Shown here: in pieces, positions 712-25,865 of the stretch
Position numbering within the stretch: the first letter of the stretch is position 1
How the letters are laid out: every line of letters starts with the position of its first letter
Assembly (NCBI GenBank): GCA_030649345.1
Contig: JAUSKK010000027.1
Coordinates: forward strand, 1-28,116
DNA length: 28,116 nucleotides
Origin: Candidatus Iainarchaeum sp.
GTDB lineage: Archaea > Iainarchaeota > Iainarchaeia > Iainarchaeales > 0-14-0-20-34-12
Direction of reading: 5' to 3'
The notes under the pieces: model-generated
Told to the model about the DNA's origin: nothing
Databases searched by the model: none
The model's input: only the letters and a program-made list of their open reading frames with translations
Translations under genes and position numbers: made by a program

Positions 712-3700
712 ATGAATGGATTAAATGTCAAGAAATTAGTTGCTTTAGGAATTGGAGCAGCCTTAGTTGGTGCTGCAGTAGCCCCTTTAGCCAGTGCACA
801 AGCACTAGATAGAAGCGCTTTGTTTAATGAAAGCGGAGATCCTATTGTTGACGTTGTAGTAGGTGCTGGAAGTCAGCCTAGCGACGGAGTATGGGCCGCT
901 AATATTGCTGCAAAACTTGCACAATTAGCTTATGTTGAAGTAGCTGGAACTACAGATGCAACCGGAACTTACACAGGAACTATCTCTACCGGTGGCGGAG
1001 AAGAATCAATTAGCTCAACAGGTTCATATGTTATTGACACCAATACTATGAGTTCTACATCTGGAGCAAAAGAATTTGGAAGAGTAACTTACACCAGATC
1101 TCAATTGCCTTGGTTAGTAGATAAAGCATACACTCAATTATTGAATAGTACAAATTATTCAGTAACTATTAAAGAAGAAATTCACGTAAATTGTGATTTA
1201 TTATTTGATTATACAAGAACTACAGTCGCTGATTTGGTTGGAACTTGCCCTGGTGTAGGAGATTTTAATTACACAGTTGCAGCTTCATCTGGACAGCCTT
1301 TGGTTGTTTTAGATGCTGCCACAGGAACTACTACAGATTTCTCTGATGGTTCAGACGACTATATTGTTGTGCCTTTCTTTGGACAAGAATACACTGTATT
1401 TAGTGTAACCACAAGCGGAACAAAACCAAGTGAAACTATCTCTAGTATAAAATTAGCAAAATCAGCTAATGAAAGAACATTGGTTGCCGGTGAAGAATTG
1501 GAAGTTGCTGGAGTTAACAACTATGCTGGTCAAACTTTGAAATTAAAATTAGATGGTGTTTCACAAACAAGTTCAGGTGGAACTTACAGCGGATCTTTTG
1601 TTGTAACTGATGAAGAAGGAAACCAAGTTGTCAGTCTAAATACTGGTGACGGAATTTTCTTAGCTCAGTCTTTAAGAGACGCTTCAGGTCAATTAGTAAC
1701 CAGTACTGAAAATTATATTAGCAGAATAAGTTTGGATGTTTCCAGAGATCCTGCTGTTGGAAGTGTTGTATTGTTGACTGGATCCGATATTTTGGATTTA
1801 AGAGCTGATCAATATCCATTCAATTCTTCAGATTCTGACACTAGTAATGATCGCTGGAAAGTTGCATTTGGTCCACATGTTAATTCTAGCAGTCCAGATG
1901 TAAATGCTATCAGTACAATCAGTGTTTACAACAATAATATTTCGGTTTCGTTAAGAGACAGTACCAATCCATTGTACTCTAAAAATAGTTCTCTGACTGG
2001 AAAAGGAACTGAAAGTGAATGGAATTTCTTAGCTGGTGAACCAGTAGGAACAAACGGAAAAGATTTTGTTATCATGCGATTTGATGGTTGGAAAACGGAT
2101 AATATTAGATTTTCAACTTTGACAATCGGTGGAAGTGTTTCAGGAAGTTCATCTGGATCCAGTACTGGAGTTGTTTACAAAGACAGTACAGGATTTGAAC
2201 ACAAAGTTCCATTCTATTATACTTTGAGCACAAGCTCTCAAGGTGGAAGTACTTTCACATTAGATGGTGCAACCTTCTACTATAGAGTAAGTACATCAGA
2301 TTTGAATTTTACTTTAGCTGGTGGAGACACAAATATAATTAATGGATACAATCCAATAAAGACACTGCTTGATGCAAACTTGCCACTTAATACTGATCAA
2401 GGTGACTTGAATTTTTCAAGCCTAAGTGTTGGAGTAGTATCGGGTGTGGCTTTAGGTGCAACCAGAAATATTGACTTAAATGGTGTCAATTATTATTGTA
2501 CAAGAACTAGTGCAACAGGTCATGCATTGAATTGTGCCGCTGATGGAAATCTGATGGTTTCTACAAATGGTAAAAGTTTCAGTCCAGAGCCTGTAGCCGG
2601 TGATGTAATTGGTGGAACCAATCAAAATCGTACTTGGTATTATGATGATGGTAACCTTGCTGGTAAAACAACCAGAGCAATTAATCAATTGGCAATAACA
2701 TCCACAACTGGAATGAATAGTAAAACCTATAACTATGTTCCATATGTTAATGAAACACAAGGAAGAATGTACTTGTTATTAGGTGCAGGCGGTGTTGGTG
2801 GTCAAGCGATTACTGATACTGAAAACACCAATTCCTTTGACTTTACATTCTATGGAACAGACACAGGAGAAGACCTGATAGAAGATAGATACTTCTACTG
2901 GCCTGACTTCCAAGAGTTGCCAAACTTTGAAGGAAGCTCAACTATCTTAGGTCAAACTACAACTAAGTCGACTTCATCTCCAACTGGTGACAGTTCAGAC
3001 ACAGCTTATTTTACAGCTGTATTTGATGTAGACACCAATAAAGATGCTGCTTACAATGCAGAAGTATATGTTGATACATCTACTGGAAAATTGGTAACTT
3101 TGCCTAATGCAAATTTATCTATTGTTAGTGCTGATGTAAACTTCCATAATGGTCAACCAAGCGGTAACTTATGGAGCTTGTCTGATAGAACCGATGTTGT
3201 TGTATTACATGCAGGTTACGATGACTATGGGACAAAAATTTCTGTAGCTGACAAAGTTGCAACCTTTATGGTTCCACATGAAGCTGTAAAGACAAAAACA
3301 ACTTTCTATGGTTCAAGTACAACAGTAACAGTAAGTGAACCAGTAGTTGTAACTTACACCTGTAATCCAGGAGACACAGAAGTTGTAGTTGAAGTTGGCG
3401 GAAGTAACCAAACAGTTATCTGCCCAGGAGCAGCAGCTGCTGGAACAACAACCAGAGTTTACTCCACTGTTGAAGCAAGTGTTGTATTAGACAGTGACGC
3501 ATTCAATTCAGCTGGTCCCCACATTATTGTTGGTGGCCACTTGGTTAACACCTTGGCTGAAAGTGTTGTTTTAGCTGACGGAAGAACATCTGCTGAAGCT
3601 TTAACTCAATCTGGAGACAAAGTCATGGAAGTTTTAAGTAACGGAAATGTCTATGTAGCCGGTTGGACTGCAGCAGACACTCAATCAGCAGCCAGAGACT

Positions 3701-9203: not shown

Positions 9204-10433
9204 TTACTTGTACCTTAGGAAAGCAGCCAAGCCGCCGAATCCTGCCATAAATTGTTTGCCTTCATCTGTTTCTGTGCTAATAACTTCAGTTTCTGCTCCA
9301 ATACTTTCTGCTTTTTCTCGCAAATAATCAATGTATTCTGCTTCTTCCATGGATTCCATTACATGCTGGCAGTTGGTGCATTTAATTTCACTGCGAACTT
9401 GGTTTTCGTTTAAAACTTTTTCAGTTTCACAATTGGGGCATTTAAATCTATGAATGGTTTTGTCAATTCCTTCACTTAATAAAAGCAATCGAATTTTTCC
9501 AATTTCTAAGGCTTCCAAGACTTCGTTTTCTCCATAGGTGACTAAACCGTTTTTGGCTATTTCAGTTAAAAAGTCTTGGATTAATTTTTTTTCATGAACA
9601 ATAGAGCTATCTTTTAGTAGTTCTCCGGACATGTCGACTACTTCTTTGATTCCGTATTCGTCTGTATAACTGGTGTCTAATTTTCCAATAATTTTGTCTT
9701 TAATTCTGTAATCTAGATTTCCTTCGTCTAAAAATTCTTCTTTGGTAATTCCTGGGCCTGCAATAATCATTCCTTTAAGTTCATTTAAAATCGGAATAAA
9801 TACTCCGCCCATTTTTTCGGCTACTTCTCTGTAAAATTGCTGAGCTGCTTCTTCTCTAAGTCTCTGAAAACGAACAGCACTCTGGCCCCCAGCACGTTCC
9901 TTTCCATGAACTCGACTAGTGAAGTGTCCTACAATATCATATCGTTTTCCGCGTAAGACTGCAACTGTAGCTTCTCGTTTGTCCATGGTTAGAATTCCGT
10001 AAATTTCAGATGTTTTAATCATTTTTTGCAATGGGTCTAAATGGAATTCGGAATCACACCAGTATAATTTGGTGTCCAAGCGTTCAATTGTTTTTAATGC
10101 AAACAACCGGATGTCCGGCCTTCCGCTTCGAGTGCTTACATTTCCGCAAAAAATAACTATTCCTAATTCAGGGATTTTAAAGTCAATGGATTTTAAAAAA
10201 TTAATAATTTTTCGCAAAGCTCCTTGTACATTTTTTCGTGTGGTTGGATCTTTGATATTGGAACTTTGGCTCATTTCTTCGGTTAATTGTCCTGTAACTG
10301 AACTGCGGTCTGCAGTAGGTGGAACATACAAGGAAATAAGTTCTGTTCCAGATCCTTTGAATTCTGCCATTTTTTGCAGTTTTTTCTTAAAAATGCTTTT
10401 TTCGGCTTCACTGGCTGTATGAAATTGAGTCAT
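9204..10433 (-). CDS. prf1: peptide chain release factor aRF1
   Basis: GGQ motif (RAGGQSAVRFQRLREE), YxCxxxF motif (YWCDSEF), a NIKS-position motif reading NIKD, and a Cys4 mini-domain (CPNC...CTNC). 409 aa. Confidence 0.93.
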   Translation of the reverse strand: MTQFHTASEAEKSIFKKKLQKMAEFKGSGTELISLYVPPTADRSSVTGQLTEEMSQSSNIKDPTTRKNVQGALRKIINFLKSIDFKIPELGIVIFCGNVSTRSGRPDIRLFALKTIERLDTKLYWCDSEFHLDPLQKMIKTSEIYGILTMDKREATVAVLRGKRYDIVGHFTSRVHGKERAGGQSAVRFQRLREEAAQQFYREVAEKMGGVFIPILNELKGMIIAGPGITKEEFLDEGNLDYRIKDKIIGKLDTSYTDEYGIKEVVDMSGELLKDSSIVHEKKLIQDFLTEIAKNGLVTYGENEVLEALEIGKIRLLLLSEGIDKTIHRFKCPNCETEKVLNENQVRSEIKCTNCQHVMESMEEAEYIDYLREKAESIGAETEVISTETDEGKQFMAGFGGLAAFLRYK

Positions 10434-21163: not shown

Positions 21164-21796
21164 TCAAAAATCAATTAAGGGCATGAGTATAAATTTTCCA
21201 TTTCTGTATCCTAGCACCATAATGTCTTTGGATTCAATTTCACATGCTCTATAAATTGTTTTTTTTGCTTGAGCTAATTCAGCATAAGCATACCTGTGCA
21301 CAGACTCAAATTTGCTGGATTCCTTTAGGTTTGCAGCTTTAAATTCTTCTAAAACTTTTTGGCCGCGTTTAGTGTTTTTCTCCAGTATTTCTTCCAAGGT
21401 AGGATAAACTGCTTTTCTCATGGCTATCAATCGTTCGCCAATCACATAAGCTTTAGGCTCCAGCAATACATAGGTTGTAGGTTCTTGTGTTCGATTGTGT
21501 TTTCGTGTACGCCGAATTACTTCTCGAATTGTTTCTTTTGCAGTGTCTACTTCTGTGCGTTTGATGACAACACTTTTGAATTCTGGATAATTTCGTTGAA
21601 TGTTCATGGCTCTTATTCTTCGGCCCCATTCTGTAGTATTTTCAGGTGAAGGATTTGTATTGAGTATCCTGCGGCGGAGATCCACATCATTTTGCCGGTG
21701 ATCAATATTTTTCATTTTTCCTAAACGAGTATCTATTTTTTTGGATGCCTTTCTCAATCTTTGAACTAGTTTTTTAGGTAATTTTCCAATCGGCAT
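21164..21796 (-). CDS. hypothetical basic protein, 210 aa
   Basis: ATG-initiated ORF with a TATA-like AATTTTAATA about 30 nt upstream and a lysine/arginine-rich N-terminus. No family recognised. Confidence 0.6.
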   Translation of the reverse strand: MPIGKLPKKLVQRLRKASKKIDTRLGKMKNIDHRQNDVDLRRRILNTNPSPENTTEWGRRIRAMNIQRNYPEFKSVVIKRTEVDTAKETIREVIRRTRKHNRTQEPTTYVLLEPKAYVIGERLIAMRKAVYPTLEEILEKNTKRGQKVLEEFKAANLKESSKFESVHRYAYAELAQAKKTIYRACEIESKDIMVLGYRNGKFILMPLIDF

Positions 21797-21837: not shown

Positions 21838-21897
21838 AAGCGGTACGCGTGCTACTCAATCTTAAACAACTCTTCTAAACGTATTTACGAAAAGCAA
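21838..21897. repeat. island repeat element, copy A
   Basis: AAGCGGTACGCGTGCTACTCAATCTTAAACAACTCTTCTAAACGTATTTACGAAAAGCAA aligns at roughly 70-75 percent identity (hand alignment) with copy B at 25050-25112. It lies between a minus-strand stop (21944) and the next minus-strand start (21796). Confidence 0.6.
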
Positions 21898-21943
21898 ATG
21901 AATTTACATTTGAAGTTTTTAAAAAGTAAGCACCAATCCAGTA

Positions 21944-22708
21944 TTATTTCAGTAAATCAGTTTTTCTTGGATAAATTACTCCGACAATCATAAACGTTGG
22001 GAATCTGTAATGTGATCCGACGATAAAGTAAACATGTTTGTTTTTCATTATTGCATTTAACATTTTTTCTTTGACTTTTTGATGAACTTCATTTTCATCT
22101 TTATATTTTCCTTGTTTTCGATAATCTTCACATTTTCGATAAAGTTCTCCCACCTCCCAATCTTCACATAATGTTTCATGAATTCTTCCGTCAATGTCAT
22201 CTTTGAATTTATAACTGTACTTAACTTTAGGCGGGCTGAGTTTGAATGCTTTGCTGCCAAAAAGATCTTTTTGTTTTCCCATATTCACTAATTTTTCATA
22301 GTGCTGATTGTCTGAAGGCAGAAAATCGAATACTTCTTTTGGTTCTATAACTCCTAATGATTGTTTTTTTACGCCTTTTTCTTCTATTTGTTCAATTGTT
22401 TCGATTCTAGTTTTAAGCAGGTCTTCTATTTCTTTAAATGTAGCTTCTCGTAATGGTTTAATTGTTTCGAATTTTACTTTTCTACTTTCTGGTCTGTGAT
22501 CAGAAGGTTTGTCATCTTGAAGTTCGTATTCAATCCACCATTTTTTCTTAAAATTTTGCGGGCTGGTTTTCCAAAATAATTCCCATGGAATTGGATATAT
22601 TCTTCTCCATTCGCCTTTATCTGTGATGCCAGCTACACAGATTAATTCTTCATATTTTTTGCTTGCTTCAGGAACAGCCTTTGCAAGCACTAATAAGCGT
22701 TCTTTCAT
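21944..22708 (-). CDS. hypothetical protein, 254 aa, translationally coupled to the DUF488 fusion gene
   Basis: Its ATG overlaps the upstream TGA (ATGA, 4-nt overlap at 22705-22708). It is a charged, soluble-looking protein (ICVAGITDKGEWRRIYPIPWELFW ... HVYFIVGSHYRFPTFMIVGVIYPRK). No family recognised. Confidence 0.7.
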   Translation of the reverse strand: MKERLLVLAKAVPEASKKYEELICVAGITDKGEWRRIYPIPWELFWKTSPQNFKKKWWIEYELQDDKPSDHRPESRKVKFETIKPLREATFKEIEDLLKTRIETIEQIEEKGVKKQSLGVIEPKEVFDFLPSDNQHYEKLVNMGKQKDLFGSKAFKLSPPKVKYSYKFKDDIDGRIHETLCEDWEVGELYRKCEDYRKQGKYKDENEVHQKVKEKMLNAIMKNKHVYFIVGSHYRFPTFMIVGVIYPRKTDLLK

Positions 22709-23553
22709 ATATGAGTCACTGAAATGCCTTGCTTTTCTAGTTCGTTGCTAACTATTCCTCTATGGCAATGATTTTTATCTTGTTCAAAACACAATAAGGC
22801 TATTCTCTTTTTCCTGCCAAGTTCCATTATTGTTTTTACCTGGTTTATTTGTTTTGGCAAAATACCTTTACTGTAAAACTCAAATAGTTCTTTATAATCT
22901 GCATCCGTTTTCAAGTCTTTTCTATATTCTCCGTTAATTCCAAGTTCTGGAATGTGCAGATACTGTATTCCGGCTTTTTCTAAATAATGAGTCAATTTAT
23001 TTTTAGTAAAAACAAAGTTCATGCTAAACGGGTTAGCTCTAAGGTCAATAACAAATTCAATATGATTTTGAATTAGCAAGTCTAAAAATGAATCGATATC
23101 CTTCTTTTCATAACCAATTGAAAAAACACATGGCGTATAATATTGTTTTGTCGAAGTTTTCAGTACACTTCGCTCAGCGTAAGCGGGATAAGCAGCATAA
23201 ACATAATCAACAATTCTTGTAGTGCTGTAATGACCGTATTTGTTAACAATTTCATTAACCAATTGTTTTTCTTTTTGACTCAAAAGACCTTCAATTTCAT
23301 TAACTGGTTTTTCTAATTCTAAATTTTTATCTAAATATGTTTGGTTTTGCAAATCTGTCAGGTCAAAATAATACTGATTTGAAAAAGGTCCGTAGTTGTG
23401 AGGATAAAAATTGTAAAACTTTACAACCGCATCTATTGTTGTTTCCTTTTTCAAAAGGAACAGTATCTTATCTAAAAAGGTCTTTGTTGTCCTTCCGTTT
23501 AACTTTGATAATTGCAAAATTAAATATAATAATACTTTTTGCCGATTGTACAT
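22705..23553 (-). CDS. fusion protein: N-terminal DUF4065/Panacea(SocA)-like domain plus C-terminal DUF488 domain
   Basis: The C-terminal approx 150 aa fit the DUF488 pattern (VFSIGYEKKDIDSFLDLLIQNHIEFVIDLRANPFS...GIQYLHIPELG...RIALLCFEQDKNHCHRGIV). The N-terminal approx 130 aa (FLDKILFLLKKE...FYNFYPHNYGPFSNQYYFDL) resemble the DUF4065/Panacea signature KLxKLLY...W.yGPv. This assignment is from memory, not a search. Confidence 0.8.
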   Translation of the reverse strand: MYNRQKVLLYLILQLSKLNGRTTKTFLDKILFLLKKETTIDAVVKFYNFYPHNYGPFSNQYYFDLTDLQNQTYLDKNLELEKPVNEIEGLLSQKEKQLVNEIVNKYGHYSTTRIVDYVYAAYPAYAERSVLKTSTKQYYTPCVFSIGYEKKDIDSFLDLLIQNHIEFVIDLRANPFSMNFVFTKNKLTHYLEKAGIQYLHIPELGINGEYRKDLKTDADYKELFEFYSKGILPKQINQVKTIMELGRKKRIALLCFEQDKNHCHRGIVSNELEKQGISVTHI

Positions 23554-23581
23554 GGTATATGTACTAAAAATTTGAGTGTTT

Positions 23582-23608
23582 AAAAAGGCTTCGGAACCGC
23601 ATTTCCGG
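23582..23608 (-). terminator. stem-loop plus U-tract after the PA14 gene
   Basis: On the minus strand, CCGGAA ATGCGG TTCCGA is followed by AGCCTTTTTAAAC. It lies 5 nt downstream of the PA14 stop codon. Confidence 0.45.
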
Positions 23609-23612
23609 TGAA

Positions 23613-25025: not shown

Positions 25026-25112
25026 GTCGTAGAGTTGTTTCAAAATGAAAAGCGGGATACGCGTTTTCTAATTCAAAATAACTCTTCTACTGAATATATT
25101 CACGAAAAGCAA
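25026..25112. repeat. island repeat element, copy B
   Basis: GTCGTAGAGTT-N13-AAGCGGGATACGCG...AACTCTTCTAC...CACGAAAAGCAA. It shares the long repeat with copy A. It shares the 12-mer AAGCGGGATACG and the 11-mer arm (inverted) with copy C. Confidence 0.6.
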
Positions 25113-25148: not shown

Positions 25149-25865
25149 CTATTTAATTGGATTTTCCTGTATTCTGCCCATCAAATAACTTTTTATTTTA
25201 ACTGTTTGAATGGTCATTTTTATTCTCATGTCTATAAAATTTTTCAGCTCCTTACTAGATAATAATTTAGTAAATGCTTTTTCGCAGCCTTGATAAATTG
25301 CATGCTTTTTGTTTTCAGACAAATCTTCACAACTAAATTGTTCCGCAAATTTTTTAATATTTGGGATGTCATCAGGCATTCTAAATGTTAATTCCCTCCA
25401 TATTTTAGGAAATTCGTTAATGACTAAATTTCTGATGTAACCACCGTTTATTTTATTATTATTATCTGTAATGCCGAATTCTTTCAGTTCTTCCATCATA
25501 TTTTTCTCAAATTCATCTTCGATGATTTTTCTAAATTTAAATAAAAAGTCATTATGTTCCTTTATTTTTTCATCAAAAAAATTCCACAACCAATTTCTTG
25601 TTTCTACTTCAGTTCCCATAAACAAATAATTATATTTTATGCTGTGAAAATTTTTCAAGGTTAATCCAAGATAATCATCTGGGGCTTTTGATCGTTCTTC
25701 AATTTGAAAAATGTCTTCAAGTAAACGAGAAAAAATTTCTTGATTTCTTTTAAGTTGTAATTCTTTTTCAGCCTTTTTCTTTTCGATATGTAACGTTATG
25801 AATGTACCTGTGATGACACCAATTAAACCTGAAAATAAACTAATAACAAGCTGATCGTATTCCAT
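25149..25865 (-). CDS. N-terminally membrane-anchored hypothetical protein, 238 aa
   Basis: ATG start, one N-terminal TM helix (LVISLFSGLIGVITGTFITL), then a charged helical region. A TATA-like element lies upstream. No family recognised. Confidence 0.6.
   Translation of the reverse strand: MEYDQLVISLFSGLIGVITGTFITLHIEKKKAEKELQLKRNQEIFSRLLEDIFQIEERSKAPDDYLGLTLKNFHSIKYNYLFMGTEVETRNWLWNFFDEKIKEHNDFLFKFRKIIEDEFEKNMMEELKEFGITDNNNKINGGYIRNLVINEFPKIWRELTFRMPDDIPNIKKFAEQFSCEDLSENKKHAIYQGCEKAFTKLLSSKELKNFIDMRIKMTIQTVKIKSYLMGRIQENPIK

Follow-up and report, generated by a model that had tools for sequence, protein, structure and literature searches.

The window analysed here is the whole of contig JAUSKK010000027.1, a stretch of 28,116 nucleotides (nt) from the assembly GCA_030649345.1 of Candidatus Iainarchaeum sp., and the subject of this study is a pair of adjacent minus-strand genes within it, referred to below as A and B (Table 1). 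Both are regarded as real genes, because each open reading frame (ORF) has hundreds of full-length homologues (221 for A and 215 close ones for B). An initial annotation, made from the sequence alone, had described the pair as two translationally coupled genes that share an ATGA, encoding a fusion of a Panacea-like domain (DUF4065) with a DUF488 domain and an unrecognised partner of 254 amino acids (aa), and had put it forward as an undescribed toxin-antitoxin or defence system. The ORF list and the sequence indeed show that A ends and B begins within one ATGA, and the same 4-nt overlap of the two genes occurs in at least 12 orthologous loci (L001-L004, L007-L009, L011, L020, L025, L030 and L031). 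The co-translation deduced from it is, however, best seen as a feature of this lineage and not as part of the mechanism, because the A and B genes of bacteria and phages are often convergent.

The conserved core of the system is DUF488 plus B, not Panacea plus B. A pattern scan for relatives of B over 185,579 species genomes, with one genome per species, returned 28 loci, all of them archaeal except L009, which lies in a metagenome-assembled genome (MAG) labelled 'bacterium'. They belong to Micrarchaeota, Undinarchaeota, Aenigmatarchaeota, Woesearchaeota, Thermoplasmatota, Bathyarchaeota, Methanocaldococcus, Archaeoglobi and Altiarchaeota; the loci of the archaeal scan span at least eight phyla, and the copies from DPANN archaea are 50-78% identical. 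That the 254-aa family should keep the company of DUF488 genes, a linkage on which the initial annotation had staked its proposal, is well borne out: a DUF488 gene directly adjoins B in 27 of the 28 loci, in 26 of them immediately upstream on the same strand and often with the 4-nt overlap, and the linkage extends to plasmids and Gordonia phages. The exception is locus L016 of a Thermoplasmatota MAG (1409-3165), in which a gene for a 331-aa ParB_N-ASCH protein stands immediately upstream of the B homologue.

Relatives of B were found on 23 plasmids and in 7 temperate Gordonia phages, and each of the plasmid and phage cases that I inspected has a DUF488 partner, save for a sister plasmid of pSOG1, pSOG2. 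On plasmids of Pseudomonas (with overlapping 3' ends), Burkholderia (pYS1), Rhizobium (pRL8) and Arthrobacter a stand-alone DUF488 gene is convergent with B, and on a Streptomyces plasmid the convergent partner is an XRE-type helix-turn-helix (HTH) domain fused to DUF488. A stand-alone DUF488 gene precedes B on a Sulfitobacter plasmid, a divergent DUF488 copy follows B on a Calothrix plasmid, and on the Sulfolobus plasmid pSOG1 (L043, 2758-5180) a 349-aa ParB-DUF488 fusion is encoded directly upstream of B. In pSOG2 (L036) the ParB-DUF488 gene is missing and an integrase gene is found in its place. A PD-(D/E)xK-like ORF lies beside B in both plasmids; in pSOG1 it encodes 168 aa and follows the ParB-DUF488 fusion and the B-like gene. 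In the Gordonia phage Eviarto (L035, 4974-6271), one of the temperate phages of the Nymphadora group, the B-like gene gp43 is convergent with gp42, which encodes a DUF488 protein of 150 aa, and the two genes lie between the immunity repressor gene gp44 and the integrase gene gp39, an interval that is the usual site of prophage-expressed defence genes. The pairing of DUF488 with B persists in all these orders, whether A precedes and overlaps B, B precedes A, or the two genes converge. Since the flanking genes differ at every locus and occasionally include integrase, PIN, AbiEii, Dcm/Vsr, Schlafen-AlbA2 and insertion sequence elements, I consider the pair an autonomous, horizontally mobile two-gene module. 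In one metagenomic protein of 409 aa from the Joint Genome Institute (P0330), the two parts are joined in a single chain, with DUF488 at residues 14-131 and a B-family region at residues 154-398.

The C-terminal half of A is a DUF488 domain, as had been recognised from the sequence. The Pfam model PF04343 covers residues 153-270 with 93.1 bits (gathering cutoff 22.2; E 2.6e-26) and is matched by all 40 of the 40 family members of A, and PF22751 (DUF488-N3a) scores 32.8 bits. In the AlphaFold2 (AF2) model of A (predicted local distance difference test, pLDDT, 94.1; predicted template modelling score, pTM, 0.90) this half forms a parallel-sheet Rossmannoid domain. The residues that are invariant in 40 sequences, G147-Y148-E149, D170, R172, N174, H200, R211, C255, E257 and C263-H264-R265, are located at the C-terminal ends of the predicted strands, and the predicted active-site loop runs from the strand 250-255, which ends at C255, to the helix 264-274, which starts with H264-R265. 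The CxE...CHR motif is also present in the DUF488 partners from bacteria, phages and plasmids; most partners keep GYE, DxR and CxE...CHR; in the divergent copy from Calothrix, GYG stands for GYE and CAE for CFE. Foldseek aligned the model with the putative DUF442 phosphatase 3gxg, SsoPTP, TpbA and a plant glucan phosphatase, and with the fold of diphthine synthases and tetrapyrrole methylases, at probabilities of 0.9-1.0 (0.8-1.0 for DUF442, SsoPTP and TpbA) and weak E-values of 4.6e-3 or worse (4.6e-3 to 0.1 for these three), and sequence and profile searches of the Protein Data Bank (PDB) with A gave nothing significant.

On these grounds the DUF488 domain of A is predicted to adopt a fold like that of protein tyrosine phosphatases (PTPs) and rhodaneses and to act as a phosphoesterase or phosphotransferase. 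Its likeness to the rhodanese-phosphatase superfamily and to DUF488 at large consists of the strong PF04343 and PF22751 matches, the PTP-like or diphthine-synthase-like fold, the cysteine at the end of a strand and the arginine at the start of a helix, whereas the loop of classical PTPs is Cys-X5-Arg and that of A is Cys-X9-Arg. DUF488 was reportedly assigned to the rhodanese-phosphatase superfamily by Burroughs and Aravind in 2023, and DNA-end processing in conflict systems is said to have been predicted for it in the same work, which would agree with a partner that probably binds single-stranded DNA. I know of no biochemical activity for any DUF488 protein, and a literature search on DUF488 found incidental mentions only and no experimental report. 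The remark in the initial annotation that DUF488 has no established function is therefore accurate for experiments, but leaves the reported superfamily placement out of account.

The N-terminus of A is Panacea-like, again as annotated, for the Pfam model SocA_Panacea (PF13274) reaches 32.2 bits (gathering cutoff 25.7; E 2.2e-7). The match is marginal across the family: it attains E ≤ 0.01 in 6 of 40 close relatives of A, and few precomputed homologue annotations include PF13274. In addition, the N-terminus of A weakly matches the C-terminal region of DarG (E 0.0038 in NCBIfam, 0.0029 in PADLOC), and it matches the C-terminal region of a type I Specificity subunit in PADLOC (E 3.3e-11). A reading centred on Panacea is contradicted by the marginal PF13274 match and by the lack of Panacea in most DUF488 partners of B. 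Among archaeal DUF488 proteins the N-termini vary, being Panacea-like in the clade of the window, of MazE/AbrB type in locus L021 of Archaeoglobaceae (where PF04014 scores 29.9 bits, its cutoff being 24.7) and, as judged by eye, AbrB-like in other loci of Archaeoglobi and Bathyarchaeota; further types combine AbrB with a winged HTH (wHTH) domain or a Zn ribbon with wHTH. Stand-alone DUF488 proteins of 140-165 aa have no N-terminal module, as in Methanocaldococcus indicus, and outside archaeal chromosomes XRE-HTH (Streptomyces plasmid) and ParB (pSOG1) occupy this position. At its N-terminus A carries an exchangeable module of antitoxin or DNA-binding type, which may regulate or target the enzyme. 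An archaeal ParB-DUF488-HTH protein binds CTP in vitro according to a separate study.

In its possession of a PF13274 match above the gathering score, its overlapping two-gene operon and the first position of the Panacea gene, the locus resembles the PanAT systems (Kurata et al. 2022, PMC8832971). However, the PanA proteins described there consist of Panacea alone or HTH-Panacea, whereas here Panacea is N-terminal to a conserved enzyme, and in the family of A it is marginal and dispensable for the pairing. I looked for DUF488 and B among the Panacea partners in that paper and its supplements and found neither. The locus is not filed as PanAT, because what is conserved alongside B is the DUF488 domain and not Panacea.

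Protein B has no match among the families of Pfam and NCBIfam, including the RPA, SSB and tRNA_anti-codon models, and no relative was found in single-sequence and profile searches of the PDB. In an exhaustive profile search its family comprises 1,834 cluster representatives at E ≤ 1e-3 (clusters at 50% identity), nearly all of them 240-300 aa long. The AF2 model of B, built from 36 homologues (pLDDT 85.9, pTM 0.85), has two domains, of which the first has the oligonucleotide/oligosaccharide-binding (OB) fold and the second is OB-like. Against the PDB, the best Foldseek E-value was that of Pyrococcus RPA (8oej_A, 7.7e-5); over its full length B matched fungal RPA70 (4gop_C, probability 0.99) and the DNA-binding domains A and B (DBD-A/B) of human RPA70 (1jmc_A, template modelling (TM) score 0.42-0.44, probability 0.96), and Teb1 and HIN-200 were matched as well (probabilities 0.87-0.99 for RPA, Teb1 and HIN-200). 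Superposed as a single domain, the first OB fold (OB1) gave a root mean square deviation (rmsd) of 3.7 Å over 90 columns with Teb1 OB-A and of 3.3-3.4 with the OB domain of RecO. Among viral models the best match was LEF-3, the baculovirus SSB, and behind it came SSBs and OB domains from DnaE and DNA ligase.

Over 114 diverse representatives of the B family, C24, R36, P39 and R72 are invariant and K55, D70, E74, S75, S117, D183 and E185 nearly so, with most of the family-wide invariant residues in domain 1. Domain 2 contains a conserved H177-x5-D183-W-E185 motif and a variable Cys/His cluster, and relatives of B have an extra CxxxxC. An HNH/beta-beta-alpha-Me nuclease was considered for this Cys/His region and rejected, as the fold searches gave no support and the cysteines are not conserved family-wide. 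In the model, most of the invariant and near-invariant residues of B appear to map to strands beta2 and beta3 and to the loop between beta4 and beta5 of OB1, which would be the canonical ligand-binding face of an OB fold. The fold, and the basic and aromatic residues conserved on strands beta2 and beta3 and on loop L45, suggest that B probably binds single-stranded nucleic acid. B resembles RPA, Teb1 and LEF-3 in its predicted two-domain OB architecture and in being matched over its full length by Foldseek to RPA of Pyrococcus and eukaryotes, to Teb1 and to LEF-3, and the Cys/His cluster of some relatives resembles the Zn ribbon of RPA70-C. It differs from RPA and SSB proteins in that it has no sequence similarity to them and a low TM score, carries an invariant Cys24 and acidic residues that are atypical of SSBs, and is always coupled to an enzyme gene, outside replication operons.

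Both proteins have counterparts in a catalogue of candidate defence systems. In PADLOC-DB v2, which contains the PDC-M19 models, A matches PDLC04505 (PDC-M19A) with E 1.6e-74 and 249 bits over residues 1-276 (profile positions 1-285 of 294), and B matches PDLC04508 (PDC-M19B) with E 1.1e-43 over residues 2-250 (profile positions 3-263 of 269) and PDLC04507 with E 5.7e-39. Payne et al. (2024, bioRxiv 10.1101/2024.01.29.577857) proposed 145 'phage defence candidates' by guilt-by-embedding, that is, from gene cassettes embedded within BREX, DISARM or type I restriction-modification (RM) systems. Their supplementary table has for the cassette CAS_00089 (FAM_02799>>FAM_02993) the entry 'Assign as candidate PDC-M19' and a first-column count of 174, which is taken here as the number of instances. 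The order FAM_02799>>FAM_02993 is also that of the window, where the two genes are adjacent on the same strand, A first, with the 4-nt overlap, and both hidden Markov models (HMMs) are matched end to end; judged by HMM and gene order, the locus qualifies as PDC-M19. The catalogue entry differs in having no assigned mechanism or fold, and the present copy differs in belonging to a DPANN archaeon and in lying outside an RM, BREX or DISARM locus. Among the PHROG families, A matches phrog_14939 (E 4e-41) and B phrog_25907 (E 4.7e-34), both of unknown function.

The notion of an undescribed system has accordingly to be given up, as the pair is PDC-M19A/B and also PHROGs 14939 and 25907, and the locus is best classed as a DPANN-archaeal member of an already listed candidate system. 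Likewise, B could be called unrecognised as far as Pfam and NCBIfam are concerned, but it matches PDC-M19B, and its model is that of an OB-fold protein resembling RPA. No paper that mentions PDC-M19 by name was found in a literature search. The DUF488 domain of A (residues 143-282) also matches the PADLOC candidates PDC-M45B (E 2.3e-19) and PDC-M45C (E 5.4e-14), so that at least two candidate defence cassettes contain DUF488.

Table 1. Features of the A/B locus and of other genes mentioned in the text (coordinates of the window; residue limits of domains are approximate)
Feature	Coordinates	Strand	Basis
Gene A, 282 aa, ATG start	22705..23553	-	ORF list
Gene B, 254 aa, ATG start	21944..22708	-	ORF list
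ATGA overlap of 4 nt, stop of gene A and start of gene B	22705..22708	-	read from sequence
N-terminal helical domain of A, residues 1-135, divergent SocA/Panacea-like	23149..23553	-	PF13274, residues 47-120
DUF488 domain of A, residues 141-282, Rossmann-like, PTP/rhodanese-like	22708..23133	-	PF04343, PF22751, model
Predicted active-site loop of A, C255-F-E-Q-D-K-N-H-C-H-R265 (Cys-X9-Arg)	22759..22791	-	sequence, conservation, AF2
Domain 1 of B, residues 1-90, predicted OB fold beta1-beta2-beta3-alpha-beta4-beta5	22439..22708	-	AF2, Foldseek
Domain 2 of B, residues 113-254, predicted beta-rich OB-like domain with helical inserts	21947..22372	-	AF2, Foldseek
Upstream intergenic region, hairpin of the preceding PA14 gene, then A/T-rich TATA-like stretch about 30 nt before the start of A	23554..23612	-	sequence
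Region downstream of the B stop, T-rich runs, with a 27-nt motif (21871-21897) that recurs after another minus-strand gene	21871..21943	-	sequence
Second copy of the 27-nt motif	25086..25112		repeat
238-aa ORF	25149..25865	-	
Very basic 210-aa protein	21164..21796	-	
PA14-domain protein, 284 aa	23613..24467	-	E 7.3e-8
Fic/DOC protein, 317 aa	26176..27129	-	PF02661, E 1.7e-20
aRF1 homologue	9204..10433	-	

The non-coding sequences on both sides of the pair suggest how it may be transcribed. A terminator-like hairpin (23607-23592) followed by a T-run stands 3' of the PA14 gene and 5' of gene A, and together with the TATA-like stretch the upstream region points to the A/B pair as an autonomous transcription unit with a putative archaeal TATA box promoter. 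The output of a sigma-70 promoter scan was discarded as irrelevant for an archaeon, and only its hairpin output was retained. The T-rich region behind B is probably the end of the operon and may serve as its terminator. The two copies of the 27-nt motif in Table 1 form a direct repeat with 81% identity, and each is found about 50 nt past the stop of a gene on the minus strand, gene B in one case and the 238-aa ORF in the other. The repeat might represent a terminator-like motif common to both genes, or its copies might mark the two ends of a 3.2-kb cassette in which a small wHTH gene accompanies the PA14 gene, A and B.

The role of the pair is most likely conflict-related, either in defence against viruses and mobile elements or as a selfish, addiction-like module. 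The reading that I tentatively prefer, plausible though short of probable, is a defence or conflict module in which B would be the DNA-binding subunit and DUF488 the processing enzyme; it is ranked in this way because the role of B is constant while the partner enzyme changes, and because the pairing survives the convergent arrangement. B would bind single-stranded nucleic acid, most likely single-stranded DNA (ssDNA) arising in the replication or entry of viruses and plasmids through the face of its first OB fold, which in the model carries C24, R36, R72, K55, D70, E74 and S75, with D183 and E185 conserved in domain 2 too. A would act with B on the bound substrate, and its DUF488 domain would probably remove or transfer a terminal phosphate or sugar-phosphate at a nucleic-acid end, a chemistry proposed from the predicted fold, by which the DNA of the invader could be rendered unusable, marked or repaired. 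The Panacea-like N-terminus of A would most likely autoregulate the operon or restrain the enzyme, as antitoxin domains do, and the translational coupling of A and B in the window, evident from the overlap, would be set in a transcription unit of their own. In favour of this reading count the PDC-M19 listing, the conserved pairing, the mobility, the predicted folds with their invariant residues and the exchange of N-terminal modules. The occurrence of B, where DUF488 is missing, next to the ParB_N-ASCH protein of L016 or a PD-(D/E)xK-like ORF fits B as a shared DNA-binding subunit.

Several points count against this preference. PDC-M19 is listed by Payne et al. as a candidate only, no known defence genes were found near the pair in the window, and several plasmid copies stand beside ssb, radC, DUF932 or primase genes, so that a role in plasmid establishment is possible. 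The fold matches are at the level of superfamilies only (TM ≤ 0.44 and E ≥ 7.7e-5 for B, E ≥ 4.6e-3 for A), with no sequence-level link of either protein to RPA or a solved structure. Domain 2 of B is less secure as an OB fold, and with its invariant Cys and acidic residues B could itself be an enzyme. The fusion protein P0330 is a singleton from one contig of 10.9 kb that could be an artefact of assembly or a frameshift, and because of this I have downgraded it as Rosetta-stone evidence. The class to which the initial annotation had assigned the pair, toxin-antitoxin or defence, is nevertheless a reasonable one in view of the PDC-M19 listing and of the MazE/AbrB domain that replaces the Panacea-like domain in Archaeoglobaceae, but it is not centred on Panacea. 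A bolder proposal, which I think clearly unlikely, is that the pair would be a new type of toxin-antitoxin or defence system directed at ssDNA, in which B with its Cys24/Arg36/Arg72/acidic pocket would be a novel OB-fold effector modifying or trapping ssDNA, and DUF488 a phosphoesterase reversing or completing the chemistry.

Alternatively, the pair could be a toxin-antitoxin system of type II/IV comparable to DarTG, in which B would be an OB-fold toxin that sequesters or chemically modifies ssDNA or RNA and A its antidote, with a DUF488 enzyme that undoes the damage and an N-terminus (Panacea here) that binds B and/or represses the operon, and defence would come about via abortive infection. 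The order of an antitoxin-like and then a toxin-like gene with a 4-nt overlap is as expected for such a system, the modules found at the N-terminus of A and its counterparts (Panacea, MazE/AbrB, XRE-HTH) belong to the classic antitoxin domains, and two independent libraries report the weak likeness of the A N-terminus to the toxin-binding C-terminal region of DarG. DUF488 also occurs widely alone and B almost never without a partner enzyme, the invariant Cys, Arg and acidic residues of B exceed the needs of a generic SSB, and the Panacea paper (PMC8832971) mentions dual-function antitoxins such as DarG. However, the same study does not have DUF488 among its partners, the antitoxin domain is missing in many pairs with a stand-alone DUF488 (140-165 aa), and the convergent genes with separate promoters that are common in bacteria and phages are atypical for type II toxin-antitoxin operons. 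Nor do Pfam, NCBIfam and Foldseek recognise any toxin or catalytic domain in B, and the ParB_N-ASCH partner of B in L016 resembles an effector more than an antidote. What the locus would share with DarTG is by analogy only, namely an enzyme-bearing antitoxin-like protein with a partner-binding domain and a protein acting on ssDNA, whereas Pfam finds neither a toxin of the ADP-ribosyltransferase fold nor a macrodomain, and the DarG model NF048014 scores 16.5 bits against a cutoff of 250; as judged from these profiles the locus is not a DarTG system, and I regard a DarTG-like mode of action as doubtful, though as a serious contender. More improbable is a function in the establishment, repair or counter-defence of mobile-element DNA, in which the OB protein would coat ssDNA of plasmids and viruses as it enters or replicates, DUF488 would trim or repair its ends, for instance following an attack by the host, and the chromosomal DPANN copies would be remnants or domesticated. 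The pair does occur on conjugative or mobilisable plasmids of many phyla, sometimes beside the ssb, radC, DUF932, primase/toprim and large helicase genes that are typical of plasmid leading regions; ParB-DUF488 fusions are found on conjugative plasmids of Sulfolobales, Methanoperedens plasmids carry DUF488 near the replication and repair genes RadC, UvrD and YpsA, and PHROG families place the pair in viruses. Yet in the Gordonia phages it is part of the lysogeny/immunity cassette and not of the replication genes, most archaeal copies are chromosomal in varied non-mobile contexts, the pair has been found embedded in RM, BREX or DISARM loci (Payne et al.), and it is difficult to see why a repair factor should have N-terminal domains of the antitoxin type. 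Finally, the high conservation of the DPANN copies (50-78% identity), the housekeeping genes around the pair in the window and the RPA-like fold of B could be taken to mean that B is a lineage-specific DPANN version of RPA or SSB and that DUF488, as a metabolic phosphatase, has no tie to it beyond a common operon. This is highly improbable and was rejected on the sporadic, mobile distribution, as the pattern scan located so few loci, in unrelated phyla, copies reside on plasmids and phages, synteny is not conserved beyond the pair, and B has no sequence similarity to the RPA and SSB families of Pfam.

The surroundings of the pair in the window do not bear out the mosaic accessory island next to a Fic enzyme that had been proposed. 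A distance of 2.6 kb and three ORFs separate the Fic gene from the pair, and the other neighbours are mostly housekeeping genes, such as those for a SulP transporter, L10e, phosphoenolpyruvate (PEP) synthase, aRF1, TruD and Dph2 of diphthamide synthesis, along with genes for glycosyltransferases and an S-layer protein. No tRNA and no integrase were found around the pair within the window, the GC dip is mild, and the repeat search around it returned weak short repeats alone, which are probably shared terminator-like motifs; the idea of an integrated island was abandoned for the want of a tRNA, an integrase and anything beyond such repeats. The Fic/DOC protein itself appears solitary, with no obvious antitoxin ORF next to it. 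Directly upstream of gene A is the gene for the PA14-domain protein, whose N-terminus includes a hydrophobic segment, and the gene next downstream of the pair encodes the very basic 210-aa protein, for which Pfam, PADLOC and PHROGs gave no match. The aRF1 homologue shows a weak Zn_ribbon_4 match (E 0.0011) at residues 330-359 within its eRF1 domain 3, and this stretch could be an insertion peculiar to the lineage.

As far as I am aware, and subject to the work of Burroughs and Aravind mentioned above, what is new here is the RPA-like fold predicted for the B family, the DUF488 plus OB core across archaea, bacteria, plasmids and phages, and the interchangeable N-terminal modules. DUF488 is a large family present in many bacteria and archaea, and its OB partner family of about 1,800 clusters is without a Pfam entry or a name. 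The preferred reading offers a testable model, an ssDNA binder with a Cys-dependent phosphoesterase of nucleic-acid ends, and tractable homologues are available in the plasmid pairs of Pseudomonas, Burkholderia and Rhizobium and in gp42/gp43 of the Gordonia prophage. If B were the novel effector considered above, this would be the first biochemical function for DUF488 and the first function for the B family, and among the first defence mechanisms to be defined in DPANN archaea. If the model of binder and enzyme is validated, PDC-M19 would move from a catalogue entry to a mechanism, and it would add to the sparse knowledge of immunity and addiction modules in DPANN archaea.

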